Origin: Alphaproteobacteria bacterium
Lineage (GTDB): Bacteria > Pseudomonadota > Alphaproteobacteria > SP197
Assembly (NCBI GenBank): GCA_964291265.2
Contig: OZ219747.1
Span: forward strand, 2,208,001-2,272,000
Reading direction: 5' to 3'
Length of the DNA stretch: 64,000 nt
Shown here: one piece after another, positions 15,946 to 56,479 of the stretch
Layout of the letters: the number at the start of each line of letters is the position of its first letter
Position numbering within the stretch: position 1 is the first letter of the stretch
Notes under the pieces: model-generated
Databases searched by the model: none
Told to the model about the DNA's origin: nothing
The model's input: the letters and a program-made list of their open reading frames with translations, nothing else
Made by a program: the position numbers and the translations under genes

Positions 15946-16996
15946 CAGAACTCAGGCGGTCACCAACGTACAGGACGGCGCACCACACAAGGCCAGGTCC
16001 CGAAGCGTAGCCTGCGCACGCTCCACAAGGTCCACAAGACCACGGCAGGTCATGTCGGCGGCGATTTAGAACGGCGGGATATTGGCGGAGAACCGCTCTT
16101 TTGGGCGCTGATCGTGTGAGTGGGTGACCACGACAGGAGAACGTGCGGCATTGGACGAAGGTCCGCCCGGTCTTTGTTTTCTGCCTATTGTTGGATCCCA
16201 TTGGTCTTGCATTGACGTTGACGATGTCGTTCCGGTCGGCGTTTTCTGGCGTTCGGCGTTTGTGGAACGTGATGTGGGAGGGGAGCTTCAGGCTTTTGCG
16301 CGTGGTTTCGTTCTGGCGTTCTCCGTCCTCGTCGTGGTTCGTCGGGCGGGACGATCTCGAGGCTGGAGAGCTGACGGTTTCTGTTGCGCTGGGCGAAGAG
16401 GCTGCGTGCGTTGCGGTTGCGGCGGCGCAGGGTGCGGCAGGCGTCGAGTGTTTTCGGGCGGATGCTGCGACCTGTGAGCCAGTCCGGCGGCGGATCGGGC
16501 GTTGCTGCGGCTCAGCGGCTGCGGCAGTCTCGTGATGTGGTGTCGTTTGGACGGCCCGGGGGTTTCCCGGGGAGGCTGAGAGGCGCGTCGGGGTGAGACG
16601 TTCTCATTCCTGGATGGTAACGCGTGACCGCGTTCAAGGGTCTTGCGAGATTACGTGTCCCTTCCGTAGCCGCGTGGCGGTTCGATGTCCTCGAGAGCCT
16701 CGATGTCGGCATCGGCGACGCTCTGCAGGCGTTCTCCGTAAGGCGTGTCACGGAGGGTTTCGGGGATGCTGTCGAGGCGGTCACGCCATTCGTCCTGCAG
16801 GGTGCGGCAGGCGTCGAGTGTTTTCGGGCGGATGCTGCGACCTGTAAGCCAGTCCGGCCAGCGGCTGCGGCAGTCTCGTGATGCGGTGTCGTTTGGACGG
16901 CCCGGGGGTTTCCCGGGGAGGCTGAGAAGCGCGTCGGGGTGAGACGTTCTCATTCCTGGATGGTAACGCGTGACCGCGTTCAAGGGTCTTGCGGGA

Positions 16997-17317
16997 TCAC
17001 GTATCCCTTCCGTAGCCGCGTGGCGGTTCGATGTCCTCGAGGGCCTCGATGTCGGCATCGGCGACGCTCTGCAGGCGTTCTCCGTAAGGCGTGTCACGGA
17101 GGCTTTCGGGGATGCTGTCGAGGCGGTCACGCCATTCGTCCTGCAGGGCGCGCAGTTCGGCCACGGCGTCGTTCCAGCGTTGCGGTCGCGAGCGCCGGTC
17201 ACGGTGCTTTGGGGTGTGGACGGGAGGGATGCCGGCCTTGCGCCGTTCCCGGTATCGCCGCTGCTTTTCGGCGGGCGTGAGGGGCATGAGTGGTCTCCTT
17301 GTGACGGACGTGGTCAT
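16997..17317 (-). CDS. Small hypothetical protein of the IS21 element
   Basis: LTPAEKQRRYRER...PPRGYGRDT; ATGA overlap with the primase-like gene. Confidence 0.7.
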   Translation of the reverse strand: MTTSVTRRPLMPLTPAEKQRRYRERRKAGIPPVHTPKHRDRRSRPQRWNDAVAELRALQDEWRDRLDSIPESLRDTPYGERLQSVADADIEALEDIEPPRGYGRDT

Positions 17318-18207
17318 GATCTCGCTTGTGGTTCTTTGGTCCTGGCGTTGACGACGTCGTTCCAGTCGGCGTTTTCCGGCGGTCTGCGTCTGTGGAACGA
17401 GACGTGGGAGGGGAGCTTCATCTTTTTGCGCAGGGTTTCGGCCTGTCGCTCTCCGGCCTCGTCGTGGTCCTGGGCGAGGACGATGGTCCTGACGTTGGGC
17501 AGGCTGCTTGCGGCGAGGCTGATCTGTTCGTGCTGTCTTCGCGAGGGTGCCCCGGCGGTGGAGAGGAAGGCGTGGCTGGGGGGACATTGGTCGATCTGGG
17601 CCAGGCTGAGGGCGTCGACGGCGCTTTCGGTGATGACGAGGGCCTCGAGGTCCGCGGCGGTTCCGGCGCGGACGGCGAACAGGCTTCGGGTTCCACCGGT
17701 GGCGAAGCGTTTCGGTCCGTCGGGGGGACCGATCTCGAAGCCGGTGAGCTTTCGCTTCCTGTTGCGATGGGCGAAGAGGACGCGTCCGTTGTGGTCGCGG
17801 CGGACCAGGGGGCGGCAGGTGTCGAGGGTCTCCGGGAGGATGCCGCGCCCGGTGAGCCAGTCCGGGGCCGCATCGGGCGTTGCCGCGGCCCAGAGGCTGC
17901 GGAAGTCGCGTGGCGCGGCGTCGGGTGCTGCGAAGCGGGTGCAGATGTCGGCGAAGGCCAGTCCGCGGTTGAGCATGAAGTCGATGACGGTTCCGTTGTC
18001 TTCATCGTTCTGGGTGTTGAAGTAGACCCAGTGTCCGTTGTTGAGGCACTTCGTGACGAGCTTCGGCAGGCCGGGTGCGCACAGGACGGGGTTGGCGCGT
18101 GTCGAGGCCTGTTCGTCGCGGACGTATCCCCAGTCGGCGGCGATGCGTTCGAACGGCATGCGCTTGACGGCGTCGAAGTCGACGCGGCGGGGTTTATCGG
18201 GTTTCAC
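17314..18207 (-). CDS. Toprim-domain primase-like protein (DUF3991/Toprim_2-like)
   Basis: GHWVYF...GTVIDF, ITESAVDALS, IVLAQDHDEAG (DxD), DWND. Confidence 0.8.
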   Translation of the reverse strand: MKPDKPRRVDFDAVKRMPFERIAADWGYVRDEQASTRANPVLCAPGLPKLVTKCLNNGHWVYFNTQNDEDNGTVIDFMLNRGLAFADICTRFAAPDAAPRDFRSLWAAATPDAAPDWLTGRGILPETLDTCRPLVRRDHNGRVLFAHRNRKRKLTGFEIGPPDGPKRFATGGTRSLFAVRAGTAADLEALVITESAVDALSLAQIDQCPPSHAFLSTAGAPSRRQHEQISLAASSLPNVRTIVLAQDHDEAGERQAETLRKKMKLPSHVSFHRRRPPENADWNDVVNARTKEPQARS

Positions 18208-18895
18208 GCCTGAGCCGCCAGGAGTCGCTGTCGATGGAGATGAGGGTTGCGTCGTGCATGAGCCGGTCGACGGTGCCGGCGATGCCGGAGGCGCTGGGGA
18301 AGACGCGGTCCCACTGGGCGAAGGCGAGGCTTGTTGTGACCATGGTCGAGCGGCGCTGATAGCGCCGCGAGACGATGGCGTAGAGGATGTCGGCATGGTG
18401 GCTTTCGAGGGTCACGTAGCCGATTTCGTCGAGGACGAGCAGGCGGGGCCTGGCGAGGATCGCGAGGCGGCGGCGCAGCTCGCTGCGCGAGACGGTCTCG
18501 GCGAGTGCCTCGAGCAGTTCCGGCGCCTTCTCGAAGCGGACGGTGTGGCCGTGCAGCAGGGCCTGGTGCGCCACGTTGGCGGCGATCATGGTCTTTCCGG
18601 TGCCCTGCCCGCCGACGAGCACGGCGTTGTCCGCACGGTCGACGAAGCCGAGGCCGAGGAGCGCTTCGACATGAGCCCGGCTGATGTCGCGCGGCCATGT
18701 CCAGTCGAAGTCCGCCAGGGGCTTGAAGGCGGGCAGCCGCGCCGCGGCGCGGCGGCGCTCGTGGCTGCGGGCCCTGCGGGCCTGTTCCTCGCCGCTGACC
18801 ACCTCCTCGATCCATGCGGTCCCGGCGACCTCGTCCCAGCGTTCGACGAGCCCGTGGAGGCCGAGCGCCCGGGCACGCTCCCTGAGCTCGCTCAT
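18194..18895 (-). CDS. istB: IS21 helper ATPase IstB
   Basis: DFDW, Walker A GGQGTGKT, Walker B LLVLDEIGY, VDRLMH. Confidence 0.92.
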   Translation of the reverse strand: MSELRERARALGLHGLVERWDEVAGTAWIEEVVSGEEQARRARSHERRRAAARLPAFKPLADFDWTWPRDISRAHVEALLGLGFVDRADNAVLVGGQGTGKTMIAANVAHQALLHGHTVRFEKAPELLEALAETVSRSELRRRLAILARPRLLVLDEIGYVTLESHHADILYAIVSRRYQRRSTMVTTSLAFAQWDRVFPSASGIAGTVDRLMHDATLISIDSDSWRLRRETR

Positions 18896-20385
18896 GTCTT
18901 GTTCCTGGCGCTGGCTTCGGGCCTGTCGTAGGCGTCGAGAGCGGTCCCCCGCGGCGTCGTGCCACGGCCGCCGCGGCCGTCGTCGGCGATGCTGAGGGGC
19001 GGCAGGCCCTGCTCCCGGCGGCGCTCCTCGATGATGACGCGCACGGTTTCGGGGTGGCACGAGCCGCGCTCCAGCGCCGTGGCGACAGCCCGGTCGAGAG
19101 CGTCGGCGCCGTGCGCGTTGAGAAGCGTCTCCAGCATCCGGGCGCAGGAGGCCACGTTGCGCCCGTTGGTCCCGGCGCGCGCCAGCATCTCCTCGGCCCG
19201 CGGCACGGTGCGCAGGACCCGGTCGCGGACGCTCATGGAGCGGGCCCGCCGCTTGCCCGCGGCGATCGCCCTGGCATGCTCCGGATCGGTGACGGCCTGC
19301 TTCCTGTCGTAGGAGCGTCGGTGGCGCGCGACCTCGTCGGCGCCGTCGAGGATGCGAACCTCGTCGCGGTCGGCGACCAGCGTCAGCAGGGCCTTGGAGA
19401 AGCTACCCGGAACGCTGTAGTCGTTGGTGTCGAAGCGGGCGTGGCAGGTCTTGTCGATGCGCACCGGGCGGACCTCGTGATGCGGGAAGGGGTCGACGGG
19501 AAGGACGATCAGGTGCTCCCTCTCCCGGGCGAAGGCGTCCCGCACCAGGAGACTGTCGTCGTCCGGCCAGGGCCGCTCCGCGGCGGCGCCGAAGCACCAC
19601 TCCCGAACTGCGGCGTTGAGCTCGCCGAGCGGGACCGTGATGTCGCGCCCGGCGAAGAACCCGGTGCGCGCGAAGCGCACACGGCGTTCCACGCGGCCCT
19701 TCTCCTGCGGGCTCCTGGGCCAGGCGGCGCTCGGTTCGAAGGCATAGTGGGCCGCGAGGCCGAGCAGCATCGGATGATAGGTGACCGCCTTGCCGCGGCG
19801 CGTCACCACGGCACTCTTCAGGTTGTCGTACAGAAGCCTCCGCGGCACACCCCCGAATGCCGCGAAAGCCTCGACATGGCCTTGCAGGAAGCTGGCCATC
19901 CGCGCGTCGTGGAACAGGCTCAGGACAGTCTGGCGCGAGTAGCTGAGGGTGACGAGAAGCCCCATGAGCCTGCGCTCCGCCCGGCCGATGCGGACCTTCC
20001 CGAACTCGGCCCAGTCAACCTGCGCCTGCTCGCCCGGAAGGAAGCTCAGCCGCAGCGACGGCTCGGGCCTCTTCACCGGCCTCAGCCCGAGGCGGCGCAG
20101 GTCGTGACGGAAGTGATCCTCGCCGCCGCGGTAGCCCAGAGCCACGACCTGTCGCCAGAGCGTGCTGGCCGGAAGGTCCGGCGACGCCTCAAGACGCTCC
20201 CCGAGGAAGGCAACGAAGGGGTCGATGAGCTTGGCCCGCGGCCGCCGCTCCTGCCCCGACGCCTTGAGCGCCCGCGTCACCGTGCCGTGGTGCACGCCGA
20301 GATGCCGGGCAATCGTCCCCACAGCCCAGCCCTCGGCCCGCGACAGCCGCACGATCGTCGCCCGCGTGTCCTCGTCGATCGCCAT
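18892..20385 (-). CDS. istA: IS21 transposase IstA
   Basis: N-terminal HTH, PGEQAQVDW, LSYSR, YDNLKS, KGRVE, YSVP. Confidence 0.93.
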   Translation of the reverse strand: MAIDEDTRATIVRLSRAEGWAVGTIARHLGVHHGTVTRALKASGQERRPRAKLIDPFVAFLGERLEASPDLPASTLWRQVVALGYRGGEDHFRHDLRRLGLRPVKRPEPSLRLSFLPGEQAQVDWAEFGKVRIGRAERRLMGLLVTLSYSRQTVLSLFHDARMASFLQGHVEAFAAFGGVPRRLLYDNLKSAVVTRRGKAVTYHPMLLGLAAHYAFEPSAAWPRSPQEKGRVERRVRFARTGFFAGRDITVPLGELNAAVREWCFGAAAERPWPDDDSLLVRDAFAREREHLIVLPVDPFPHHEVRPVRIDKTCHARFDTNDYSVPGSFSKALLTLVADRDEVRILDGADEVARHRRSYDRKQAVTDPEHARAIAAGKRRARSMSVRDRVLRTVPRAEEMLARAGTNGRNVASCARMLETLLNAHGADALDRAVATALERGSCHPETVRVIIEERRREQGLPPLSIADDGRGGRGTTPRGTALDAYDRPEASARNKT

Positions 20386-20417
20386 GAACTCCCTCCCTTT
20401 GGTTCCTCAACGCCGCA

Positions 20418-20948
20418 TCACGGGTCCCTCAGCACCACATGCGTCACGACCCGTCCGCATCTGGCGCACCGAAGCGGCGATTCGCGCCGCTCTCGCGCCT
20501 TCACAACCGCAGGTAGGGAGGTCGGCAGCAGTCGGGAAGGGTGGTCCGTAACGATTTCTTCAGAACCGGCGTCTCCAGACACCGCCGGAACGTCGCCAAG
20601 CAGCACCACAGCAGACGTCTGCGTGTCCATGATCTCGGCAACCATCGCCGCCCTGGCCTTCAACGCACGCGCCTCCTCCGCCTTGCGGAGCCGGTAACGC
20701 CGCTGGCGGTGACGGCCCGTCTCACGGCCCTTCAGCGTGCTCTGGTAGCGACGACGCGACGCGCGGCGCCGCTCGATCCGGGACCGCTCCCTGCACTCCT
20801 TGGAGCAATACACATGCCCCCGGTCACACGACCGGCAGAGAACAACCTGCCGCTGACACCGCCTGCAGTTGAACAGTCGTCCTGTCGTGCACACCGTCCG
20901 TCTCGAGAGCGGGGGTGGACCCGGACGCAAAATGGCTCGACAATACAC
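20418..20948 (-). CDS. Cys-rich putative Zn-finger protein upstream of istA
   Basis: CRRC, CRSC, YCSKEC, basic stretch, C-terminal CARC; start uncertain. Confidence 0.65.
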   Translation of the reverse strand: MYCRAILRPGPPPLSRRTVCTTGRLFNCRRCQRQVVLCRSCDRGHVYCSKECRERSRIERRRASRRRYQSTLKGRETGRHRQRRYRLRKAEEARALKARAAMVAEIMDTQTSAVVLLGDVPAVSGDAGSEEIVTDHPSRLLPTSLPAVVKARERRESPLRCARCGRVVTHVVLRDP

Positions 20949-21959
20949 GGGAGTTCGGTCCCCCGTGACCGGCTCGTCCGGGTGCTGCGCCGGGGGGCGT
21001 CACAACTCCGCCCGGCATCGCATCGCTCTTTCTCTTGATGCCGATCTAGCATCCACCCGGGGCGGCGGCAAAGACGCCGCCCCGGGACCGGACAACGCGA
21101 CCCGCCCACAGGGAAGACAGACGATCCCGCGAGTGCCTCGGAACCGGAACCCTCCCGGCAACCGTCACCAAGACCGAAGCAGAGGTCGACGGAACCCGAA
21201 CCGGACCAAAACGACAATAGGAAAAGACGGCGGCGCTCGGGGAGACAACCAGCCGAACACTCAAACCACGACAACAGGACGTGACAATAGGACCTGACAA
21301 CAGGGAAGAAACACGACCCTGACAAAGCGCGGCAAATCGCCGAAATCCCGCCGTTCTATGCAGCCATCAACAGGTCAGGATGTCTGAACTTCTGGTCTTG
21401 GATTTTCGCGACGGTAACGGTGCATGCACAGGCAGTGAGCGGAACCACAGGGCTTTTCTTTTGTCGTCCCGGCGCTCGGCGCACGCAGGATTCTGGGGGT
21501 GGACATCCCGTTTTCGCCGTGGCAGTGTGCCGGCATGACGACGCTTGTGACCCCAGATTCCCCTATCGACCTTCACGAGGTGACGGTGCGCCCGACCCGT
21601 GGCGCACGTGAGCACCGGCTCTGGGATCGTCTGGTCAAGGAGCATCACTACCTGCGGTTTCACGGCATCATCGGCAAGGGCCTGCGCCATGTCGCCCTGC
21701 ACGGCGAGACCTGGGTGGCGCTGGTCGGCTGGCAGCCGGGCTCGTTCAAGCTTGCTGCACGCGACCGCTGGATCGGCTGGACTGCGGAGCAGCAGTTCCG
21801 GCGCCTGCATCTGATCGCGAACAATTCCCGGTTCGTCATTCTTGGCCCGAGGTAAGCGTTCGGCCACGCGGTGATTGTTGGTGATATTCACCGGTTGAGG
21901 ATGCGTTTGGGAGGCGCACCACGTGGCGGTTCGCTGTTGGGTCCGAAGACGATGGGTCC

Positions 21960-32902: not shown

Positions 32903-33910
32903 GCGCCGCCTGGCCCATGACACGCTCAGGCTCCCGGCACAGCACGGCGCGCCAGTCAGGCGTCAGGGGCTTCATCCATACGGACCGCTGCACGCCCGGG
33001 CCGGTGGCCCCGGGAGGTCGACCCGAGGTCATCTCCTCACAGCGCTCCCAGCCCGCCGCCCGGTAGCTCACGCCGCTGTGCTCGGGACCCACATACGTGT
33101 ACGCCAGAACCGGCTTCACCCCGTACTTCTCGTGCCAGTCCGTAGCCAGACGCCGGCAGGCACAGGCCAGGGCATGGGAGGCCAACTCCTTCACATCCAC
33201 CGATGGAAGAATCAGGAAGCGATCATTGTTGACGATCTCGCCGAGGTGGGCGACACGGGCTCCCTGGGACCAGCCGATGAAGTCGTCGCGCGCCTTCTGG
33301 TGCCAACTCGCCGCACCAAACACCAGGCCGCCGAGGCGACCGTGGCGCGACGAGGTGATCCAGTAGCTCACCCGGGCTCCGGGTGCGCACGCCTCGCCTT
33401 CGGGATGCCAGGTCGCCATCATCGAACGGGCCAGGCGCTTGTCCTCGCCCTCGCCCACAGGCTCCAAGGTGACCTCTCCAAGGTCCTCCAGAGAACAGGC
33501 GAGGAGCTTGTCGGGATAGTCCCGCTCAAGGGTGTCGGCGCCGGTGCCGAAGGCATCAGGCCTTGGTGCAGGAAGGGCGATGTCGAGCGACGCAGCAAGG
33601 TCAGGCAGGGCCGCACGCGCCGAGGCAAGACACAGCTCGCCCTTCGCGTTGCGCCACTCCTCGCGCTCGCACAATCCCCGCGCCAGAGACGAGCGTGTGC
33701 TGCCCTCGGCAGCCGACGCCGCCTTCAGCCAGTCAACCGTCGTCGCAGACAGATGTCGAAAGCCGATCCTCATGGGCCACTATGTAAGGCCTCATGAACG
33801 TCGAGTCAAGCCTGTCCCGTTGAAAGCCCTGGGACTCCAGAGTCGTGCGGAACAGGTCGATGTCCTCCTCCGCAAACACTTGCTCGCCGGGGTCTCGGGA
33901 CGTTCGCGCT

Positions 33911-34032: not shown

Positions 34033-36078
34033 CGGTGGGGTTGGTGTGATCCGCCAGGTTGTCGGCTTCGTCGCATTCAGATCATTTTCCAGAGCCCGGA
34101 CCAGTCCCTCAATCCGGAACGGCGCGTCGACGGCGCCATCGGCAGGCCCCTCGAACTCTATTTCGGCATGTCGGGTTCCGAGAAGTACGACCGGATTGCC
34201 GATCTCCTCGAGATGGTCGGACTCGACCCCGATGACGCGGGACGCTTTCCCGCCGAGCTGTCGGGGGGTGAGCGCCAGCGTGTCTCCATTGCCAGGGCCT
34301 TTGCCGCCGAGCCTGACGTCATCCTGTGTGACGAAGTTCTCTCCGCCCTCGATACCGTGGTGGCCGCCCGTGTGCTCGAACTGATGAAGGAACTGCGGGA
34401 ATCCCAGCAGATGGCATACGTCTTCATCAGCCACGATCTCTCGACGGTCGCGTCGATCGCTGACCGGGTGGCGGTCATGTATGCCGGCAGGATCGTCGAC
34501 GCCGGGTACACCGACGATGTGTTCGCCCCGCCGCATCATCCCTACACGCAGCTTCTCATCAACTCCGTGCCGGTGCTGCGCCAGGGATGGCTCGAGGAGG
34601 TCATCACAAGCCGCGAGACGGAAGCGGGCATGCGGTGTGGCGAACTGGCGGAAGGTAGGGGGTGAAAGTCCCCTGAAACGAAGGAGTAACCAAACCACGT
34701 TTCTCCGCGAGCCGTGCGTCGGTTCCCGCGAGGGGGCAGGCGAAGCGTCGGTAGCGGTGCGGATGGGCAGGGCTAATGAGCACCGAAAAATCCATGTTTC
34801 GGGGTGCCGAGGCTTTCGTAATGGTCGAAGGCAACATCGCAGGCATCGATTTGGTGAGATGTCGGCGAGCTCCGCGGTGTCAGAGAACCCATGCACGTCC
34901 GTACGCCTTCTGTTGGGACCCTGGGAGGTCTTCGAACTATCCCGCCTGTCGTGGCGGGACCGTGTAGGGAAAGGAGAAAGCCGAAGCCTATGAGGAACGG
35001 TTTGAAGAAGTCAGATTCGGCCATAGTGTGTGCTGGGCAGCGCCCAGATCAGGTGGGTTCAAGTCCCACTGGCGCTCGGGTAAGGGGCGCCATATCCAAA
35101 AGCGGGGGTCATTCCTCGCTGGCCGGGGTGAGCGAATAAGCGACGCCCTAAACGGGCACGAAGTTGGAAACGACGGACACTGCCAAGGGAAGAGCTAAGG
35201 TAACTACTCACCCCCTACTGATGACGGATCGTTTTTCCTGACGGGTTCGGATCCGGCATTTTCTCTTGCCGCCTTCACTTGCTCGCTGCCGATGATCGGA
35301 TGTGCGTGTTCCGACTGACAAGAAGCGGATCGATCTTCGGCTTCAGCTCCACGTTCCGGCCTTGTATGACCAGGTTTTGTCCCCGTGATGATGCAATCAT
35401 CCACAGCGGTTGGCTGCCTTTCCAATCCTCTGGAGATATGCGCTTGACATTGTAGGAGGGGCACTCTACATGCTGGCCATCGGGGCGGTTTGCGTCGGAG
35501 ATATTGATGGCGGCATGGTACGGATCGAAGGCGACGACGGGTCTGAGCCAGGCGATCGTCGCGGCCATGCCGCCGCATGACGTGTACATCGAGGCGTTCC
35601 TTGGGGGCGGCGCGATCATGAAGCGCAAGCCTCCGGCGCTACGCAGCATCGGCATCGACCTCAACCGACGGGCGATCGACACCTTCCGCTGTGACTATCC
35701 GGTGGAGCTTCACCAAGGCTGCGCCCTGCGTTTTCTCGAGACCTTCGCCTTCCAGGGCCGCGAGCTGGTCTACTGCGACCCGCCTTACGTGCAGTCGACG
35801 CGCCGGTCGCAGCGCCGCTACCGCTTCGACTGCACGGACGACGACCATGCAGGACTTTCCTACGCTACGGCTGATTTTTCGGGAAGCCGATGAATCGCGC
35901 CCGAATCGGCCATCTGATCTTTCGCGAGGCCGACGAATCGAGGCCGAATCGGGATGTCCTGGACGGATTCCGTGGCTTCAGTGCCGTCCGCATGGCGACA
36001 CCGGCAGCGTTTTCGGCCCGGATGCTTGGTTCTTGATGTTCTAGCAGCGTTCCGGGGTCCCCGGACGCTCAAGGCGTC

Positions 36079-38075: not shown

Positions 38076-38520
38076 GACCGGACCGTCGCACATCCCAAGC
38101 GGGATGGCCAGCGGAAAATGTCCGCGCGCGTGCAACATACGAACGCCTGACGTCAAGTGAAATCAAGCGAATTCCAGCGTGGGAAGGCCTTGACGACCAT
38201 GTTGCGCTCCTTGACATCCTGACGTCGCTGCCCTGCCAGGTGATGATCTCCGGCTATCCCTCGCGGCTCTACGACACGCACCTCGCCGGCTGGCGCTCGG
38301 CCGAGATCCAGGTCAACAACCAGGCCTGCGTTGTCACCGAGAAGCTGTGGTTCAACTTCGCACCGGGCCGGCCGCACTGGCATACGTGTGCGGGCAGGAA
38401 CTCGATCGACCGCCAGCGCATCAAGCGCCTCGCAGAGAGCTGGGCGCGGCGCTACCGGACGATGCCCGAAGGCGAGCGGCTCGCCGTGCTGGCGGCAGTC
38501 ATGGCGGTGGAGGCGTCGTC

Positions 38521-39999
38521 ATGGCGAGCGTGAACGGCACGTCTGTGCGCCAGGAGGCCGACGTCTTCCAGAAGCAGTTCCAGGATCTCCGCAAGCAGGG
38601 CAAGGTCAACCAGGAGTGCGAGGAGCTCTTCCGCGGCATGCTGATGCTGATAAAGCTGTTGCTGACCGTGCTCATGGAGAAGATCACACGCAAGACAAGC
38701 CGGAACTCCGGTCTGCCGCCATCGCAGACTGACAAGGACGAGAGCGCGAGGCGCACCGGGAGCCACGGCAAGGGCCCGAAGCCGAACCAGCAGACGGGCG
38801 ACAACCTGCGCACGACCACCATCGAGGAGACGATCACCGTCGATGCCTGCGACGCCTGCGGCGCCGACCTCCACGACGTCGACCCCGTCGACCGGGAGTG
38901 CCGCGTCCTCTACGACATCGTGTTCGAAGTCGTCGAGCGCCGCGTCGAAGCCGAGATCAAGGAATGTCCGAAGTGCCGGGCCCGGACCAAGGGCCGGTTC
39001 CCAGACAACATGCCGGGCCCCCTGCAGTACGGCGTCAGCATCCAGGCCCTCGTCATCAACCTGCTGATCGCCCAGATGCTGTCCCTGCGTCGTGCCGTCT
39101 CGCTCGTGCACGCGATCTCCGGCATCAAGCTCTCCGAGGCGACCTGCCTCGGCTATGTCCGGCGCTTTCACGATGCCCTCGCATCATGGGAGGAGGCCGC
39201 CGTGGCCCATCTCCTGCAACAACCGGCCCTGCATGTCGACGAGACCGGCTTCCGGGTCGCCGGCAAGACCCAATGGCTCCATGTCGTCACCGACGGCACC
39301 CTGACGTGCAAGTTCCCGCACCCCAAGCGCGGCCGGGAGGCGATCGAAGAGATCGGCATCATCCCGCGCTACAAGGGCGTCCTGATCCACGACTGCTGGG
39401 CTGCCTACATGGGCTACGATCAATGCCGCCACCAACTGTGCGGCAGCCATCTCCTGCGCGAACTGACCTTCGTCGTCGAGTCCAACGGCTACCGCTGGGC
39501 GCGACTGATGAAAAGCCTACTGCGCGAGGTCTCCCGCAGGGTCAACAAGAGCGCATCCAAGACCTTGAACGAGGCCGACCGCCGGGCCGTGCGCAAGCGC
39601 TACCGCACCATCCTCACCCAGGGCGCCAAGGAACTGCCCGACATCCCGCCACGGACGAAAGGAAAACGGGGACGCATCGCAAAGTCCGACGCGCACAACC
39701 TGCATGAACGTCTCGTGAAACACGAGAAGTCCGTCCTGCGCTTCATGAAGGACCCCAACGTCAGTTTCACAAATAATACCGGAGAGCAGAAGATCAGGAT
39801 GACAAAGGTCAAGATCAAGGTGTCCGGATGTTTCCGCACCATGCCCCACGCCAAGGCATGGTGCCGCGGCTCAAGCTACCTCACCACCATGGACGCACTC
39901 GGCTACAACCCTCACGTCGCCATCCACATCGCCCTCGACGGAAAGGCCGTAGACATCCTCAACCAGCACTACGGACAACCAGACCCTAACAAGGGGTGA
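38521..39999 (+). CDS. IS66-family transposase (TnpC-like), apparently intact
   Basis: SRNSGLPPSQ, CDAC...CPKC, HVDETG, IHDCW, LCGSHLLREL, FTNNTGEQKIRM, KVSGCFR. Confidence 0.92.
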   Translation: MASVNGTSVRQEADVFQKQFQDLRKQGKVNQECEELFRGMLMLIKLLLTVLMEKITRKTSRNSGLPPSQTDKDESARRTGSHGKGPKPNQQTGDNLRTTTIEETITVDACDACGADLHDVDPVDRECRVLYDIVFEVVERRVEAEIKECPKCRARTKGRFPDNMPGPLQYGVSIQALVINLLIAQMLSLRRAVSLVHAISGIKLSEATCLGYVRRFHDALASWEEAAVAHLLQQPALHVDETGFRVAGKTQWLHVVTDGTLTCKFPHPKRGREAIEEIGIIPRYKGVLIHDCWAAYMGYDQCRHQLCGSHLLRELTFVVESNGYRWARLMKSLLREVSRRVNKSASKTLNEADRRAVRKRYRTILTQGAKELPDIPPRTKGKRGRIAKSDAHNLHERLVKHEKSVLRFMKDPNVSFTNNTGEQKIRMTKVKIKVSGCFRTMPHAKAWCRGSSYLTTMDALGYNPHVAIHIALDGKAVDILNQHYGQPDPNKG

Positions 40000-47681: not shown

Positions 47682-48350
47682 TTGGGGTACTTCGGATCGA
47701 AGGCGACGCCGGGTTTGTGCCAGGCGCTGATTGCGATGATGCCGCCGCACTCTGTCTACATTGAGAGCCATCTGGGGGGCGGAGCGCTGATGAATCGCAA
47801 GCCTGCGTCTGTGCGCTCGATCGGGATTGACCGTGATGAGCGTGCGCTTGAGGCCTTTGAGTGCGCTTATCCGGTGGAGTTGGTGCACGGCTGTGCTCAC
47901 TCCTTCCTGGCTTCGTTCCCGTTTCTGGGTCCGGAGCTGGTCTACAGCGATCCGCCCTATCTGCACGCGACGCGGCGTTCGTTGCAGCGCTACCGCTTCG
48001 AGTACGAGGAGGCGGACCATGTTGCGCTCCTTGAACTGCTCAAGGGCCTGCCCTGTCAGGTGATGGTCTCGGGCCACCCGTCTGCGCTCTATGACGATCT
48101 TCTGGCGGGCTGGCGCCGGGTGGCGCTGCAGGTGACGACCCAGGCCCAGGTGCGGACCGAGGTGGTATGGTTCAACTTTGCTCCCGACCGGGTGCACTGG
48201 TCGCGCTACGCGGGGCGGAACTTCACCGCCCGCCAGTGCATCAAGCGCAAGGCGGCCAACTGGGGGCGGCGCTACGAGGCCATGCCGCCGGGGGAACGTC
48301 TGGCCGTGCTGGCGGCGATCATGGCCGTCGAGGCCGGGGAGGGTTCGTGA
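47682..48350 (+). CDS. N6-adenine DNA methyltransferase (Dam/D12-like), 222 aa, intact
   Basis: GYFGSK, ESHLGGGA, YSDPPY, VMVSG, RTEVVWFNF; GGAG RBS, TTG start. Confidence 0.9.
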   Translation: MGYFGSKATPGLCQALIAMMPPHSVYIESHLGGGALMNRKPASVRSIGIDRDERALEAFECAYPVELVHGCAHSFLASFPFLGPELVYSDPPYLHATRRSLQRYRFEYEEADHVALLELLKGLPCQVMVSGHPSALYDDLLAGWRRVALQVTTQAQVRTEVVWFNFAPDRVHWSRYAGRNFTARQCIKRKAANWGRRYEAMPPGERLAVLAAIMAVEAGEGS

Positions 48351-49737
48351 CCGTCTCGCGCTGGCGCGAGGACATCGCCGCCCAGGACGAGGCTTTCACG
48401 TGCCTTCAGGACCTGTTCAGTCCACACTCCTTCGCCGTGACTGCCGTCAAGGCCCTCCGGGATTGGGGCCAGGGGATGTTGCGCCTGAGTGAGGCGCTGG
48501 TCGGGGAGATCGAGGCGCTGGAGCGGGAGAACACCGGCTTGCGCGAACGGATTGATGCACTCGAGCGCAGCGCCGCGCTCGACAGCTCCACCAGCTCCAA
48601 GCCACCGGCCAGCGACGGTCCGAAGAAGAAGAGCGGAAACCGACAGAAGCGCACCCGGAGCCAGCGCGGCAAGTCCGACAGGCCCAGTGGCGGTCAGCGC
48701 GGCCACGAGGGAGTCACCCTGAAGCAGGCCGAGAACCCGGACCACGTCGTCGATCATGCTCCGTCTGCCTGTAAGGGCTGCGGCGCGCCGCTGTCGGATG
48801 ATGACCGTCACGCAGAACCCGTCTGTCGGCAGGTCTTCGACATGCCCGAGCCGTAGCCCCTCGAGGTCACCGAACATCGCGCCCATCGCTGTCTCTGCGC
48901 CGCCTGCGGCGCTGTGACAACAGCCGCCTTCCCGCACGGCGTGAGCGCCCCGGTCCAGTACGGGCCGCGCATCACCGCCTGGGTGACCTACCTGTTGCAC
49001 GCCCAGTTCATTCCCGAGAAGCGCGTCGCCGAGGTCATGAGCGACCTCTTCGCCGTCAGGATCTCAACCGCCACCATCGCCGCCATGGGCAGGCGCACCG
49101 CCCGGCGCTTCGAGAGCTTCCTCGATCATGTCGCAGAGATCATCCGCACCCAAGCACCGGTCAAACACCTCGACGAGACCGGCATCCGCATCAACGGCCA
49201 GACCCACTGGCTCCATGTGCTGTGCACCCCCTTGCTCACCATCCTGCGCATCGCCACCGGGCGCAAACACATCGACGAGACACTCAACGGCATCGTCATC
49301 CATGACGACTTGGTGTTGATGGCTGCATAGAACGGCGGGATTTCGGCGATTTGCCGCGCTTTGTCAGGGTCGTGTTTCTTCCCTGTTGTTAGGTCCTATT
49401 GTCACGTCCTGTTGTCGTGGTTTGAGTGTTCGGCTGGTTGTCTCCCCGAGCGCCGCCGTCTTTTCCTATTGTCGTTTTGGTCCGGTTCGGGTTCCGTCGA
49501 CCTCTGCTTCGGTCTTGGTGACGGTTGCCGGGAGGGTTCCGGTTCCGAGGCACTCGCGGGATCGTCTGTCTTCCCTGTGGGCGGGTCGCGTTGTCCGGTC
49601 CCGGGGCGGCGTTTTTGCCGCCGCCCCGGGTGGATGCTAGATCGGCATCAAGAGAAAGAGCGATGCGATGCCGGGCGGAGTTGTGACGCCCCCCGGCGCA
49701 GCACCCGGACGAGCCGGTCACGGGGGACCGAACTCCC

Positions 49738-50268
49738 GTGTATTGTCGAGCCATTTTGCGTCCGGGTCCACCCCCGCTCTCGAGACGGACGGTGTGCACG
49801 ACAGGACGACTGTTCAACTGCAGGCGGTGTCAGCGGCAGGTTGTTCTCTGCCGGTCGTGTGACCGGGGGCATGTGTATTGCTCCAAGGAGTGCAGGGAGC
49901 GGTCCCGGATCGAGCGGCGCCGCGCGTCGCGTCGTCGCTACCAGAGCACGCTGAAGGGCCGTGAGACGGGCCGTCACCGCCAGCGGCGTTACCGGCTCCG
50001 CAAGGCGGAGGAGGCGCGTGCGTTGAAGGCCAGGGCGGCGATGGTTGCCGAGATCATGGACACGCAGACGTCTGCTGTGGTGCTGCTTGGCGACGTTCCG
50101 GCGGTGTCTGGAGACGCCGGTTCTGAAGAAATCGTTACGGACCACCCTTCCCGACTGCTGCCGACCTCCCTACCTGCGGTTGTGAAGGCGCAAGAGCGAC
50201 GCGAATCGCCGCTTCGGTGCGCCCGGTGCGGACGGGTCGTGACGCATGTGGTGCTGAGGGACCTGTGA
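49738..50268 (+). CDS. Cys-rich putative Zn-finger protein upstream of istA
   Basis: Same as 20418-20948. Confidence 0.65.
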   Translation: MYCRAILRPGPPPLSRRTVCTTGRLFNCRRCQRQVVLCRSCDRGHVYCSKECRERSRIERRRASRRRYQSTLKGRETGRHRQRRYRLRKAEEARALKARAAMVAEIMDTQTSAVVLLGDVPAVSGDAGSEEIVTDHPSRLLPTSLPAVVKAQERRESPLRCARCGRVVTHVVLRDL

Positions 50269-50300
50269 TGCGGCGTTGAGGAACCAAAGGGAGGGAGTTC

Positions 50301-51794
50301 ATGGCGATCGACGAGGACACGCGGGCGACGATCGTGCGGCTGTCGCGGGCCGAGGGCTGGGCTGTGGGGACGATTGCCCGGCATCTCGGCGTGCACCACG
50401 GCACGGTGACGCGGGCGCTCAAGGCGTCGGGGCAGGAGCGGCGGCCGCGGGCCAAGCTCATCGACCCCTTCGTTGCCTTCCTCGGGGAGCGTCTTGAGGC
50501 GTCGCCGGACCTTCCGGCCAGCACGCTCTGGCGACAGGTCGTGGCCCTGGGCTACCGCGGCGGCGAGGATCACTTCCGTCACGACCTGCGCCGCCTCGGG
50601 CTGAGGCCGGTGAAGAGGCCCGAGCCGTCACTGCGGCTGAGCTTCCTTCCGGGCGAGCAGGCGCAGGTTGACTGGGCCGAGTTCGGGAAGGTCCGCATCG
50701 GCCGGGCGGAGCGCAGGCTCATGGGGCTTCTCGTCACCCTCAGCTACTCGCGCCAGACTGTCCTGAGCCTGTTCCACGACGCGCGGATGGCCAGCTTCCT
50801 GCAAGGCCATGTCGAGGCTTTCGCGGCATTCGGGGGTGTGCCGCGGAGGCTTCTGTACGACAACCTGAAGAGTGCCGTGGTGACGCGCCGCGGCAAGGCG
50901 GTCACCTATCATCCGATGCTGCTCGGCCTCGCGGCCCACTATGCCTTCGAACCGAGCGCCGCCTGGCCCAGGAGCCCGCAGGAGAAGGGCCGCGTGGAAC
51001 GCCGTGTGCGCTTCGCGCGCACCGGGTTCTTCGCCGGGCGCGACATCACGGTCCCGCTCGGCGAGCTCAACGCCGCAGTTCGGGAGTGGTGCTTCGGCGC
51101 CGCCGCGGAGCGGCCCTGGCCGGACGACGACAGTCTCCTGGTGCGGGACGCCTTCGCCCGGGAGAGGGAGCACCTGATCGTCCTTCCCGCCGATCCCTTC
51201 CCGCATCACGAGGTCCGCCCGGTGCGCATCGACAAGACCTGCCACGCCCGCTTCGACACCAACGACTACAGCGTTCCGGGTAGCTTCTCCAAGGCCCTGC
51301 TGACGCTGGTCGCCGACCGCGACGAGGTTCGCATCCTCGACGGCGCCGACGAGGTCGCGCGCCACCGACGCTCCTACGACAGGAAGCAGGCCGTCACCGA
51401 TCCGGAGCATGCCAGGGCGATCGCCGCGGGCAAGCGGCGGGCCCGCTCCATGAGCGTCCGCGACCGGGTCCTGCGCACCGTGCCGCGGGCCGAGGAGATG
51501 CTGGCGCGCGCCGGGACCAACGGGCGCAACGTGGCCTCCTGCGCCCGGATGCTGGAGACGCTTCTCAACGCGCACGGCGCCGACGCTCTCGACCGGGCTG
51601 TCGCCACGGCGCTGGAGCGCGGCTCGTGCCACCCCGAAACCGTGCGCGTCATCATCGAGGAGCGCCGCCGGGAGCAGGGCCTGCCGCCCCTCAGCATCGC
51701 CGACGACGGCCGCGGCGGCCGTGGCACGACGCCGCGGGGGACCGCTCTCGACGCCTACGACAGGCCCGAAGCCAGCGCCAGGAACAAGACATGA
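50301..51794 (+). CDS. istA: IS21 transposase IstA
   Basis: QVDW, YDNLKS, KGRVE; GGAG RBS. Confidence 0.93.
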   Translation: MAIDEDTRATIVRLSRAEGWAVGTIARHLGVHHGTVTRALKASGQERRPRAKLIDPFVAFLGERLEASPDLPASTLWRQVVALGYRGGEDHFRHDLRRLGLRPVKRPEPSLRLSFLPGEQAQVDWAEFGKVRIGRAERRLMGLLVTLSYSRQTVLSLFHDARMASFLQGHVEAFAAFGGVPRRLLYDNLKSAVVTRRGKAVTYHPMLLGLAAHYAFEPSAAWPRSPQEKGRVERRVRFARTGFFAGRDITVPLGELNAAVREWCFGAAAERPWPDDDSLLVRDAFAREREHLIVLPADPFPHHEVRPVRIDKTCHARFDTNDYSVPGSFSKALLTLVADRDEVRILDGADEVARHRRSYDRKQAVTDPEHARAIAAGKRRARSMSVRDRVLRTVPRAEEMLARAGTNGRNVASCARMLETLLNAHGADALDRAVATALERGSCHPETVRVIIEERRREQGLPPLSIADDGRGGRGTTPRGTALDAYDRPEASARNKT

Positions 51795-52492
51795 GCGAGC
51801 TCAGGGAGCGTGCCCGGGCGCTCGGCCTCCACGGGCTCGTCGAACGCTGGGACGAGGTCGCCGGGACCGCATGGATCGAGGAGGTGGTCAGCGGCGAGGA
51901 ACAGGCCCGCAGGGCCCGCAGCCACGAGCGCCGCCGCGCCGCGGCGCGGCTGCCCGCCTTCAAGCCCCTGGCGGACTTCGACTGGACATGGCCGCGCGAC
52001 ATCAGCCGGGCTCATGTCGAAGCGCTCCTCGGCCTCGGCTTCGTCGACCGTGCGGACAACGCCGTGCTCGTCGGCGGGCAGGGCACCGGAAAGACCATGA
52101 TCGCTGCCAACGTGGCTCACCAGGCCCTGCTGCACGGCCACACCGTCCGCTTCGAGAAGGCGCCGGAACTGCTCGAGGCACTCGCCGAGACCGTCTCGCG
52201 CAGCGAGCTGCGCCGCCGCCTCGCGATCCTCGCCAGGCCCCGCCTGCTCGTCCTCGACGAAATCGGCTACGTGACCCTCGAAAGCCACCATGCCGACATC
52301 CTCTACGCCATCGTCTCGCGGCGCTATCAGCGCCGCTCGACCATGGTCACGACAAGCCTCGCCTTCGCCCAGTGGGACCGCGTCTTCCCCAGCGCCTCCG
52401 GCATCGCCGGCACCGTCGACCGGCTCATGCACGACGCAACCCTCATCTCCATCGACAGCGACTCCTGGCGGCTCAGGCGTGAAACCCGATAA
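51791..52492 (+). CDS. istB: IS21 helper ATPase IstB
   Basis: Walker A and B; ATGA overlap with istA. Confidence 0.92.
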   Translation: MSELRERARALGLHGLVERWDEVAGTAWIEEVVSGEEQARRARSHERRRAAARLPAFKPLADFDWTWPRDISRAHVEALLGLGFVDRADNAVLVGGQGTGKTMIAANVAHQALLHGHTVRFEKAPELLEALAETVSRSELRRRLAILARPRLLVLDEIGYVTLESHHADILYAIVSRRYQRRSTMVTTSLAFAQWDRVFPSASGIAGTVDRLMHDATLISIDSDSWRLRRETR

Positions 52493-53372
52493 ACCCCGCC
52501 GCGTCGACTTCGACGCCGTCAAGCGCATGCCGTTCGAACGCATCGCCGCCGACTGGGGATACGTCCGCGACGAACAGGCCTCGACACGCGCCAACCCCGT
52601 CCTGTGCGCACCCGGCCTGCCGAAGCTCGTCACGAAGTGCCTCAACAACGGACACTGGGTCTACTTCAACACCCAGAACGATGAAGACAACGGAACCGTC
52701 ATCGACTTCATGCTCAACCGCGGACTGGCCTTCGCCGACATCTGCACCCGCTTCACAGCACCCGACGCCGCGCCACGCGACTTCCGCAGCCTCTGGGCCG
52801 CGGCAACGCCCGATGCGGCCCCGGACTGGCTCACCGGGCGCGGCATCCTCCCGGAGACCCTCGACACCTGCCGCCCCCTGGTCCGCCGCGACCACAACGG
52901 ACGCGTCCTCTTCGCCCATCGCAACAGGAAGCGAAAGCTCACCGGCTTCGAGATCGGTCCCCCCGACGGACCGAAACGCTTCGCCACCGGTGGAACCCGA
53001 AGCCTGTTCGCCGTCCGCGCCGGAACCGCCGCGGACCTCGAGGCCCTCGTCATCACCGAAAGCGCCGTCGACGCCCTCAGCCTGGCCCAGATCGACCAAT
53101 GTCCCCCCAGCCACGCCTTCCTCTCCACCGCCGGGGCACCCTCGCGAAGACAGCACGAACAGATCAGCCTCGCCGCAAGCAGCCTGCCCAACGTCAGGAC
53201 CATCGTCCTCGCCCAGGACCACGACGAGGCCGGAGAGCGACAGGCCGAAACCCTGCGCAAAAAGATGAAGCTCCCCTCCCACGTCTCGTTCCACAGACGC
53301 AGACCGCCGGAAAACGCCGACTGGAACGACGTCGTCAACGCCAGGACCAAAGAACCACAAGCGAGATCATGA
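52479..53372 (+). CDS. Toprim-domain primase-like protein (DUF3991/Toprim_2-like)
   Basis: ITESAVDALS, AQDHDEAG, DWND; GTG start overlaps the end of istB. Confidence 0.8.
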   Translation: MKPDKPRRVDFDAVKRMPFERIAADWGYVRDEQASTRANPVLCAPGLPKLVTKCLNNGHWVYFNTQNDEDNGTVIDFMLNRGLAFADICTRFTAPDAAPRDFRSLWAAATPDAAPDWLTGRGILPETLDTCRPLVRRDHNGRVLFAHRNRKRKLTGFEIGPPDGPKRFATGGTRSLFAVRAGTAADLEALVITESAVDALSLAQIDQCPPSHAFLSTAGAPSRRQHEQISLAASSLPNVRTIVLAQDHDEAGERQAETLRKKMKLPSHVSFHRRRPPENADWNDVVNARTKEPQARS

Positions 53373-53689
53373 CCACGTCCGTCACAAGGAGACCACTCAT
53401 GCCCCTCACGCCCGCCGAAAAGCAGCGGCGATACCGGGAACGGCGCAAGGCCGGCATCCCTCCCGTCCACACCCCAAAGCACCGTGACCGGCGCTCGCGA
53501 CCGCAACGCTGGAACGACGCCGTGGCCGAACTGCGCGCCCTGCAGGACGAATGGCGTGACCACCTCGACAGCATCCCCGAAAGCCTCCGTGACACGCCTT
53601 ACGGAGAACGCCTGCAGAGCGTCGCCGATGCCGACATCGAGGCCCTCGAGGACATCGAACCGCCACGCGGCTACGGAAGGGATACGTGA
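53369..53689 (+). CDS. Small hypothetical protein of the IS21 element
   Basis: ATGA overlap with the primase-like gene; conserved in both copies. Confidence 0.7.
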   Translation: MTTSVTRRPLMPLTPAEKQRRYRERRKAGIPPVHTPKHRDRRSRPQRWNDAVAELRALQDEWRDHLDSIPESLRDTPYGERLQSVADADIEALEDIEPPRGYGRDT

Positions 53690-54480
53690 TCCCGCAAGAC
53701 CCTTGAACGCGGTCACGCGTTACCATCCAGGAATGAGAACGTCTCACCCCGACGCGCCGCTCAGCCTCCCCGGGAAACTCCCGGGCCGTCCAAACGACAC
53801 CGCATCACGAGACTGCCGCAGCCGCTGGCCGGACTGGCTTACAGGTCGCAGCATCCGCCCGAAAACACTCGACGCCTGCCGCACCCTGCAGGACGAATGG
53901 CGTGACCGCCTCGACAGCATCCCCGAAACCCTCCGTGACACGCCTTACGGAGAACGCCTGCAGAGCGTCGCCGATGCCGACATCGAGGCTCTCGAGGACA
54001 TCGAACCGCCACGCGGCTACGGAAGGGACACGTAATCTCGCAAGACCCTTGAACGCGGTCACGCGTTACCATCCAGGAATGAGAACGTCTCACCCCGACG
54101 CGCCGCTCAGCCTCCCCGGGAAACACCCGGGCCGTCCAAACGACACCGCATCACGAGACTGCCGCAGCCGCTGAGCCGCAGCAACGCCCGATCCGCCGCC
54201 GGACTGGCTCACAGGTCGCAGCATCCGCCCGAAAACACTCGACGCCTGCCGCACCCTGCGCCGCCGCAACCGCAACGCACGCAGCCTCTTCGCCCAGCGC
54301 AACAGAAACCGTCAGCTCTCCAGCCTCGAGATCGTCCCGCCCGACGAACCACGACGAGGACGGAGAACGCCAGAACAAGACCCCGCGCAAAAGCCTGAAG
54401 CTCCCCTCCCACATCACGTTCCACAAACGCCGAACGCCAGAAAACGCCGACCGGAACGACATCGTCAACGTCAATGCAAG
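53540..54480 (+). repeat. Internal 346-bp-period direct repeat and decayed primase fragments at the IS21 right end
   Basis: ctgcaggacgaatgg...ccgcagccgctg occurs twice; 54175-54480 resembles pieces of 52800-53345; mirrored at 16206-17146. Confidence 0.85.
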
Positions 54481-56479
54481 ACCAATGGGATCCAACAATA
54501 GGCAGAAAACAAAGACCGGGCGGACCTTCGTCCAATGCCGCACGTTCTCCTGTCGTGGTCACCCACTCACACGATCAGCGCCCAAAAGAGCGGTTCTCCG
54601 CCAATATCCCGCCGTTCTAAATCGCCGCCGACACTTGGCCACTTACTTCACTCTCGAGGGCGTGCGCCACGGTGCCTGCAACGCCCATCACCTGCGCGCA
54701 CTCCAGGCCCTGATCGAGATCGAGAAGGAAGACTGGGCCACCGCCATGCACAGGCTCCTCATCCGTGCCAACAGAGCCGCCCGCTTCGCCCGCAAGAACG
54801 ACCGCGACATCCCCGCTTCACTCCTCGCCCGCATCTCGCAAGCCTGGGACAGGATCCTCGAGCAGGCCATCGCTTCCCACGAACAGAGGCCGCCGCTCCA
54901 GCCCGGAAAGCGCGGACGACGAAAACGCCGCATCGGCCACAACCTCGCGCTTCGCCTTCAGAAGCACAAGGACGGCTGCCTGCGCTTCCTCACCAACCCG
55001 CAAGTCCCGTTCTCCAACAACCAGGCCGAGCAAGACTTCCGTATGAGCAAGCTGCGCCAGAAAATCTCGGGCGGCTTCCGATCCATGCAGGGCGCATGTG
55101 ACTTCGCCAAGCTGCGATCCGTCATCTCCACCGCCCGAAAACAGGGCTGGAATGTCCTCGAAACACTGGCTCACCCTGATCCCATACAGCTGATCCCGAA
55201 ACTGCGCTTCTGACATCCCTCCTCGGCGCCATCAGACCGCAGCCATCAATCCACCTCCCGTCAGGACTCGGCGAAATTAGACCTGGGCAGTTACGCACGG
55301 GTTGCGTCGCCTGCGCGAAGGCTTTCCCCTGTGCAACCGTCTCATCCGGGAGATTCACGGGGTCTTGCTCGGTCGCGGTCGCGGCCGCAACAGGGCGCCC
55401 GGAGAGTTTCGCCGCTCAAAAACTGGATCGGAGGCCGTCGCCCCGGGGTGGCGCGCTTCGTCCCACCTCCGGTTTCCGCGGTTGCCGATTGCATGTCCGG
55501 GCTCGAACGCTTCATTGCCGCTGACAACGGCACATTGCCCCTCGTCCTGCGGGCAGGCCTCGCTCATGTACAGTTCGAGACCATCCACCCGTTCCTCGAT
55601 GGGAATGGTCGGGTAGGACGCCTCCTGATCTCGCTCATGCTGCATCATGGCGGCGTCTTGCGCGAGCCGCTTCTGTATCTGAGTCTCCATTTCAAGCAGC
55701 ACCGTGACGACTACTACGTTCTCCTCAACGATGTGCGGTACCGAGGCGACTGGGAAGCTTGGCTTTCGTTCTATCTCGACGGGGTGGCGGAGACCGCCGA
55801 AGGTGCGGTCGAAACCGCGAAGCGACTGCTGGCGCTGTTCGAGGAAGATCAGGCCAGGATCCGGCAGACAGGACGGGCGGCGGGGTCGGCGCTGCGCGTA
55901 CATCAGGCGTTGCGCGAGCGTCCCATCGGATCGATCAGAAAACTGGCCGGGCGCGCAAGCCTTTCCTTTCCAGCGGCATCGGCAGCGGTGAGGAATCTGC
56001 AAGACCTGGGCATTGCCCGGGAATTGACGGACAAGAAGAAGAACCGGCTCTTCGGTTACGACCGCTATCTGGCCATTCTGGGCGAAGGGACGTAACCATG
56101 GTCATCGGCCGACACTGCCGGTTTCGGACCGGCATCCGGCGAAACGGCCTCCAGGCTGAACAGTGCTGGCCAACTTCCGCCCGCCTTCAATCCAGAGCCA
56201 GTCGCCGTTCCCGGGAATCGCTCCCTGCCGCCATGCCGCGACTCTCCGTTCCCCTGATGCCTGCCACGCTTCCTTGCCGTGCCAGCCTCTCACGCCGTTG
56301 ACCGGAGAGCAGGTGTCGTGGGCCGCAACTCGTTCTTGGCCCCGTGGTCTTGATGAACGCCCGGCATGCGGAATCGTGACGGCTCGCGCCTGCGGCAGGT
56401 TTCCAGGCTACCGTGCCGGTGGCATGGCGCGAGTGTGCGTCGGCGAAGGGCTGAAGCGGGCCAGTCGATGGTCGCAACG

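Follow-up and report, generated by a model that had tools for sequence, protein, structure and literature searches.

An IS21-family transposon with a primase-fold gene behind istB, in the slot where sister elements hold a mini-gene with an SSB-like tail

The stretch of DNA analysed here (the window: 64,000 nucleotides, positions 2,208,001 to 2,272,000 of contig OZ219747.1, alphaproteobacterial assembly GCA_964291265.2) contains two copies of a 5320-bp insertion sequence (IS) of the IS21 family, in which the transposition genes istA and istB are followed by a gene for a DUF3991/Toprim protein of predicted primase fold. The two copies are oppositely oriented, 49314-54633 on the forward and 16053-21372 on the reverse strand, and differ by 25 mismatches and 0 gaps (99.53% identity). 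The features of the locus, numbered along the window, are as follows.

48914..55213, + strand: interrupted IS66 transposase gene, with PF03050 on its downstream half; the target of the insertion, outside the element
49309..49313, + strand: left target-site duplication (TSD) cttgg, the same 5 bp again at 54634-54638
49314..49348, + strand: left terminal inverted repeat (TIR), beginning TGT, with 26 of 35 bases matching the right end
49738..50268, + strand: open reading frame ORF1, a Cys-rich basic protein; start uncertain, with GTG 49792 as alternative
50301..51794, + strand: istA, IS21 DDE transposase with D124, D187 and E233 (NF033546, 222.8 bits, cut-off 160)
51791..52492, + strand: istB, AAA+ helper ATPase (PF01695, 171 bits, cut-off 24.1)
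52479..53372, + strand: DUF3991/Toprim protein of 297 amino acids; predicted DnaG/T7-type primase fold, Cys-poor N-terminal domain, predicted catalytic core E194, D247, D249 and D281
53399..53689, + strand: ORF5, hypothetical family, 96 amino acids (106 from ATG 53369)
53690..54598, + strand: right arm with decayed duplications, a mosaic of ORF5 and primase pieces over the last ~940 bp
54599..54633, - strand: right TIR, ending ACA
16053..21372, - strand: second full copy, inverted, TSD ggtca; its genes are ORF1 20418-20948, istA 18892-20385, istB 18194-18895, primase 17314-18207 and ORF5 16997-17287

An earlier note on this DNA had reported two near-identical copies, each with its own 5-bp TSD (ggtca, cttgg), and its coordinates proved exact. 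It had also held that the whole unit transposes, and the host genome (4.83 Mb in 2 contigs, C1 and C2) bears this out: 30 full-length copies, 29 on C2 and 1 on C1, were found with identities of 98.2-100%, making up about 4.1% of the genome. A TSD accompanies 26 of these copies (5 bp in 21, 6 bp in 4, 7 bp in 1), and of the 4 copies without one, 2 sit in nests with an intact outer duplication. The start TGTTGA is present in 29/30 copies; ORF1, istA and istB are intact in 30/30, the primase gene in 29/30 and ORF5 in 27/30. In addition, the reading frame of the interrupted IS66 gene runs on uninterrupted across the insertion site of the copy at 49314-54633. Because the 30 copies are near-identical and most of them bear TSDs and have intact genes, the 5320-bp unit moves whole and has moved recently; that is, it is a genuine and active IS21-family transposon. 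With up to 3 mismatches allowed, one 12-base core was found once per element end, where IS21 members have several transposase-binding repeats (L1/L2, R1/R2), and no clear target-site preference was seen among 21 sites. As a separate observation, the element has repeatedly inserted into copies of itself on C2 (4058043-4075257, 295923-308929 and 4237410-4258495); the resulting nests span 13-21 kb, their outer duplications are intact, and there is no sign of target immunity.

The gene order given in the earlier note (Zn-finger ORF, istA, istB, Toprim gene, small ORF) is correct, and its claim that the last four genes overlap stands in part. The sequence ATGA at 51791-51794 is shared by istA and istB, and istB overlaps the primase gene by 14 bp if the latter starts at GTG 52479. 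The primase gene and ORF5 also share an ATGA (53369-53372), yet a better ribosome site, AAGGAG, precedes ATG 53399; because of this site, ORF5 more likely starts at 53399 and its coupling to the primase gene is doubtful. Nor does ORF5 hold its place in the unit that the same note had drawn: among the best 80 of 247 stretches recovered with the primase, it joins the unit in one other assembly only, and it is a variable passenger outside the conserved unit, of a small kind common to unrelated mobile elements. No named family in Pfam or NCBIfam matched ORF5, and the ESM Atlas returned unnamed clusters only. Elsewhere, ORF5-like genes come after istB genes of other elements, after a large serine recombinase and after an IS110 transposase (L116, L117, L035:12521-12817, L355:4742-4978).

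For the remaining genes, the DDE triad of IstA is invariant in 53/53 aligned sequences, and IstB scores 191.4 bits against NF038214, just below the cut-off of 200. The ORF1 family, which precedes istA in elements with and without the primase alike, matches no Pfam or NCBIfam family and only unnamed clusters in the ESM Atlas. In the right arm, 53880-54259 resembles 53534-53889 at 91%, 54141-54350 resembles 52763-52972 at 81% and 54331-54473 resembles 53202-53343 at 83%; no such duplication was seen in 8 related elements compared with themselves. Of the genes that mark integrative conjugative or mobilizable elements (ICE/IME), Pfam and NCBIfam find none among the five ORFs, be it a relaxase, a coupling protein or an integrase, and the ends are of transposase type with TSDs.

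The gene behind istB is predicted to encode a protein of the DnaG/T7 fold with intact primase catalytic residues. Toprim_2 (PF13155) matches at 50 bits (cut-off 22.1) and DUF3991 (PF13154) weakly (20.6 bits, E 6e-4, below the cut-off of 24.5), full-length relatives carrying both domains. For the predicted model (pLDDT 91.3), the best structural match is the T7 gp4 primase (1nui_B; Z 15.5, root-mean-square deviation 3.4, 179 aligned residues), Aquifex DnaG (2au3_A) scores Z 13.5, Twinkle and further DnaGs come next, and the fold match with primases covers residues 97-292; topoisomerase Toprims are weaker (Z 11.0 at 91 aligned residues), with only about 90-110 residues matched. Moreover, Foldseek places Twinkle, DnaG and T7 primase at the top, and the family profile is collinear with the host DnaG (E 5e-5) over a span that begins in the zinc domain and includes the DxD motif, E194, D247 and D249 aligning with the catalytic residues of the host enzyme. 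A C-terminal helicase-binding domain or fused helicase is absent, the protein stopping 13 residues past D284, and no Cys is present in the N-terminal domain of 40/70 relatives. The C-terminal domain of E. coli DnaG binds DnaB and SSB (PMC3632105). The protein is here filed as primase-like, and not as DnaG. Its presumed start, a GTG located 11 bases ahead of the stop codon of istB, finds support in relatives, whose start codons overlap or abut that stop (ATG or GTG from 11 bases before to 4 after it in 11/13). A fusion of IstB and primase by conserved frameshifting was considered and rejected, as the frame offset varies among relatives; a complex prediction for primase, IstA and IstB scored 0.00, gave no verdict and was used neither way.

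The primase gene is not confined to this lineage. When species genomes were scanned with an alignment of the primase, 247 stretches were confirmed, the best 80 of which were kept and correspond to 76 loci. Of these, 67 come from 21 non-myxobacterial assemblies, by record title Alphaproteobacteria, Paracoccaceae/Rhodobacteraceae, Amylibacter, Albidovulum, Rhodobacter and Acidimicrobiales, and in 62 of the 67 (18/21 assemblies) istB lies directly upstream, the other 5 loci being primase fragments. Both ends and TSDs were found around four genes in 6 other assemblies, as units of 4.0-4.5 kb. The remaining 9 loci, myxobacterial or deltaproteobacterial (35-37% identity), have no istA or istB, and those inspected resemble conjugative islands. 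The close primase is rare (3 genomes among 60 sampled relatives), and none of 21 viral-contig loci with distant Toprims adjoins istA or istB. In random samples of 400 genomes, the ORF1 family occurs in 3 and a close IstB in 2, and the second primase type described below gave only short matches, in 2.

Within this range the primase is under purifying selection of a strength like that of the transposase. With one element per assembly from 12 assemblies, the window included and three further partial loci left out, a codon model gives ratios of nonsynonymous to synonymous substitution (dN/dS) of 0.343 for ORF1, 0.131 for istA, 0.080 for istB and 0.112 for the primase gene, a value at odds with an absence of purifying selection. 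Pairwise NG86 ratios are higher than those of the codon model (medians 0.37-0.59), and the primase still ranks with istA. The catalytic acids are intact as well, E194, D247, D249, D281 and D284 being invariant in the 12/12 related elements. Furthermore, primase distances track those of istA and of istB (rho 0.80; 0/2000 permutations as high).

What lies behind istB in sister elements is of particular relevance. A metagenome search with distant ORF1 relatives (best 80 of 578 confirmed stretches), to which a few genome and viral loci were added, recovered elements (L143-L232) that have the same first three genes, with IstA 41-49% and IstB 42-53% identical, and similar ends, but carry in place of the primase a conserved mini-gene of ~65-80 codons in the gap between istB and the end. 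The mini-gene was located at L206:3856-4080 and 37 other loci; 56 plasmid records match its product, and elements with it occur also on Burkholderia, Cupriavidus and rhizobial plasmids. In the ~70-residue protein, a variable linker joins a helical core to an acidic tail whose last Phe is invariant. An acidic-Pro-Phe end is present in 23/29 mini-proteins, as against 2/8837 long frames of the host genome, one of these two being the host SSB itself, with the tail SDFDDGIPF. The second such host frame ends in acidic Ile-Pro-Phe. Partners of the SSB tail DDDIPF are DnaG and more than a dozen proteins (PMC3632105). The mini-protein falls into no family of Pfam or NCBIfam, and no paper on it was found, a dedicated literature search for it not having been made. 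A relationship between ORF5 and the mini-protein was rejected for lack of similarity.

The two genes alternate in their slot. Over all loci, with hits that are not independent, the slot behind this type of istB holds the primase 104 times and the mini-gene 36 times, in no case the two together, while 6 hits show neither; the 104 primase hits come mostly from primase-query searches and comprise many copies of few elements. A Pro-Phe tail gene was found inside 0/15 primase-bearing elements. Searches with IstB as query gave 8 non-host loci. Three of them hold the primase (all in the primase scan too) and two a Pro-Phe tail gene; of the remaining three, two have a different ORF and one has no clear content. 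ORFs of two other kinds occupy the slot at L371:512-1033 and L374:2093-2512, and one may be a helix-turn-helix replication-type protein. A tree of IstA + IstB, whose only outgroup is very distant, unites the 12 primase elements in a single clade (support 0.998), next to which the tail-gene elements are placed. A second primase swap, suggested by an IstB-only tree that places two primase elements among primase-less ones, is not claimed, as IstA + IstB does not reject one clade.

Primases of this kind are also found in other transposon designs. The host genome contains a second element of 5160 bp, in 4 full copies with 5-bp TSDs (e.g., C2 460796-465955), whose genes encode a Cys-rich protein, an IS481/Mu-like DDE transposase, an ExeA-type ATPase, an AAA_25 helicase-like protein and a DUF3991/Toprim protein; it appears to hold a helicase-primase pair inside one transposon. 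Another design, of 4.0-4.2 kb with ends and TSDs, combines DDE transposase, ATPase and primase (15 matches in genome G005), and a further one is a 3.5-kb IS21 of a different branch, bounded by its ends and TSDs, in which istB and the primase gene are on different strands and the latter faces the former (L336:3056-6528, L343:3017-6536). Each of the 24 primases from these three designs retains the residues E, D, D, D, and all 44 DUF3991 matches in the host genome lie in two transposon families or fragments of them. A tree built from 59 primase domains groups the type found in the window with proteins of conjugative islands and plasmids, whereas the second type falls with plasmid proteins fused to MobV. 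Because a single origin of the transposon primases is rejected by the approximately unbiased (AU) test (p = 0.0004, one fast tree per hypothesis), the primase was captured at least twice, and it resides in four ATPase-assisted transposon designs.

On these findings, the likely role of the primase is to prime DNA synthesis on the transposition intermediate of the element that encodes it. This is the simplest account, because a conserved and catalytically intact primase coupled to istB alternates with an SSB-tail look-alike. Second-strand synthesis on a copy-out or strand-transfer intermediate requires a primer. In such a mechanism, IstA would nick and join the ends, generating a forked or single-strand-bridged structure that needs copying; the primase, made together with IstB, would lay an RNA primer for the second strand, after which a host polymerase would take over. 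The primase would act outside the normal replisome, since it is without the domain that docks host DnaG on DnaB and SSB. In the sister elements, the same step would be solved by the mini-protein, whose SSB-like tail may recruit host restart and priming factors. As for its history, a conjugative element is the likely source of the primase gene, which would thereafter have been inherited together with the two transposition genes. One paper counts IS21 among the circular-intermediate families presumed to use copy-out (bioRxiv 10.1101/2023.06.07.543989), and phage Mu requires PriA restart after strand transfer (PMC3325207).

Several observations weigh against a priming role. Among sister loci with a complete istB, 0/42 have the primase behind it, and both ends were seen in 22/38 primase-less loci examined, with an istB-to-right-end gap of 334-464 bp; because such complete, TIR-bounded sister elements exist without the primase, the chemistry of IS21 apparently does not need it. 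The slot counts lean on primase-query hits, as stated above, and the loci that are profile-negative for both genes (6/146) comprise 3 with divergent Pro-Phe tails, 2 with other ORFs and 1 with nothing clear. In the protein itself, zinc ligands are absent, the CxxC of DnaG aligning to Cys-free residues, and with the N-terminal domain alone 2/30 shuffles score better against the host DnaG. The host carries priA, dnaG and ssb, so that there is no missing function to supply, and compensation for a host deficiency was rejected for this reason. Finally, no clear cointegrate pattern was seen among 47 left and 40 right ends, and no end-to-end (circle) junction was found in the assembly or in the contigs of three runs from one study, contigs being prone to drop rare forms. 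The idea of the earlier note that the primase might aid replicative or copy-out transposition receives indirect support from the SSB-tail gene in the same slot and from repeated capture; its idea of replication of an excised circle finds no backing in genome or contigs.

The N-terminal domain without zinc ligands would also suit a helper that does not prime, but binds single-stranded or forked DNA at the ends and protects the intermediate or damps transposition, its acids binding metal or DNA; likewise, the SSB-like tail of the sisters could be a decoy and not a recruiter. Such a role is unlikely, as the invariance of E194, D247, D249 and D281 in 12/12 related elements fits catalysis, and E, D, D, D are kept in 24/24 primases of the other three designs.

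Rather more doubtful is that the primase gene is cargo from a conjugative element, kept for a benefit to the host (repriming, repair) or simply riding behind istB with no part in transposition. The nearest non-transposon relatives do lie in myxobacterial loci with a transglycosylase, an S26 peptidase and an integrase, plasmid relatives adjoin trb, relaxase and coupling genes, sister elements do without the primase, and ORF5 proves that passengers get picked up at this end of the element. However, the primase was kept in place while IstA diverged to 49% identity, with a transposase-like dN/dS; it excludes the SSB-tail gene from the slot; and the confinement of all 44 host DUF3991 matches to two transposon families or their fragments, together with at least two captures and four ATPase-assisted designs, also speaks against cargo.

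The conjugation-linked or relaxase-fused relatives would fit a role in horizontal spread, in which the primase makes the second strand when the element or its circle enters a new cell single-stranded, as conjugative primases do, and elements 60-88% alike in protein are indeed shared by several alphaproteobacterial metagenome-assembled genomes (MAGs) and one acidimicrobial MAG. Such a role is quite improbable, since neither a relaxase nor a coupling protein is recognised by Pfam or NCBIfam in any of the five ORFs (oriT was not searched for) and istB-coupled expression in the donor puts no protein into the recipient. That the excised circle replicates autonomously for a time, with IstB (a DnaC/DnaI-related AAA+ protein) as DnaC-like loader and the primase as initiator, is very improbable in spite of the AAA_25 helicase-like gene before the primase in one other design, given that neither helicase nor origin was identified in the element and that no junction is present in the assembly or the three runs' contigs, which cannot show excess copies.

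Outside the element, remnants of IS66 and of the ISAs1 type crowd the window. A DruA (Druantia) domain is present in transposase-linked ORFs at 30581-32872 (+), 32706-33773 (-) and 26006-27478 (+), one of them fused to an IS4-type transposase DNA-binding domain. Directly before the IS66 genes, an ORF at 47682-48350 (+) with a DPPY motif looks by eye like a DNA adenine methyltransferase and has no Pfam hit; related stretches are found at 582-1268, 35521-35849 and 38194-38869. A group II intron reverse transcriptase (23280-24866, +) lies next to IS66 pieces, and 13323-15221 (+) encodes a 632-aa protein with many short internal repeats and weak MORN-like matches.

A few IS21 members that carry passenger genes are listed in reviews of insertion sequences. 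The element described here belongs to IS21 and has a primase-fold gene in the slot where its sisters hold the SSB-tail mini-gene. It shares with IS21 and IS5376 (PMC10122671, PMC11208146) the D124/D187/E233 triad of IstA, the AAA+ IstB, the istA/istB overlap, TG...CA ends and a short TSD, and differs from them in its length of 5.3 kb, the Cys-rich gene in front and the primase-fold gene behind; IstA and IstB of IS5376 alone perform strand transfer in vitro (PMC10122671, PMC11208146). In the main text of a paper on IS21 (PMC12486865), a term search found neither 'primase' nor 'replication', and no description of a primase-bearing IS21 was found in open full text, a search that did not extend to subscription journals, ISfinder, TnCentral or supplements. 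Conjugative plasmid and ICE proteins with DUF3991/Toprim have the same domains and catalytic motifs at 26-37% identity, but lie beside trb/virB, relaxase and coupling genes or are fused to a relaxase, whereas the one studied here sits inside a transposon without transfer genes; the excerpts of two DUF3991 papers mention the domain only in conjugative settings. The IS excision enhancer (IEE; bioRxiv 10.1101/2023.06.07.543989) is comparable as a primase acting on the copy-out step of circle-forming IS, yet it is a PrimPol-helicase of the archaeo-eukaryotic primase (AEP) type that is encoded apart from the IS and promotes excision, while the present protein is Toprim-type and element-encoded. Phage Mu likewise pairs a DDE transposase with an AAA+ helper and passes its strand-transfer fork to replication; it uses, however, the host PriA, DnaT, DnaB and polymerase III, and no Mu-encoded primase is named in the excerpt (PMC3325207). 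Lastly, Tn6049 of Cupriavidus metallidurans (PMC2864759), likened here by description and not by sequence, is multi-copy and has a GspA/ExeA ATPase helper as do two of the other primase-bearing designs, but is not an IS21, and no primase is described in the excerpt.

Copying of the strand-transfer product of an IS is the least understood step of copy-out or replicative transposition, and in Mu it is left to host restart proteins. A broader possibility, put forward tentatively and with somewhat less confidence than the priming role itself, is that ATPase-assisted DDE transposons (IS21, Tn6049/Tn552-like) carry behind the ATPase an undescribed gene for the hand-over to replication, which would exist in two interchangeable forms, either an element-encoded primase, which conjugative DNA would have supplied on two or more occasions, or an SSB-tail mini-protein calling in the host PriA, DnaG and polymerase. 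In other words, these elements might direct their own copying. The primase-bearing IS21 and its SSB-tail sisters provide two natural, swappable handles on that step, in a family that offers cryo-EM structures and an in vitro assay. If true, this would give transposons a further, new class of accessory genes, with which ATPase-assisted integration systems could perhaps be made to function in foreign hosts.

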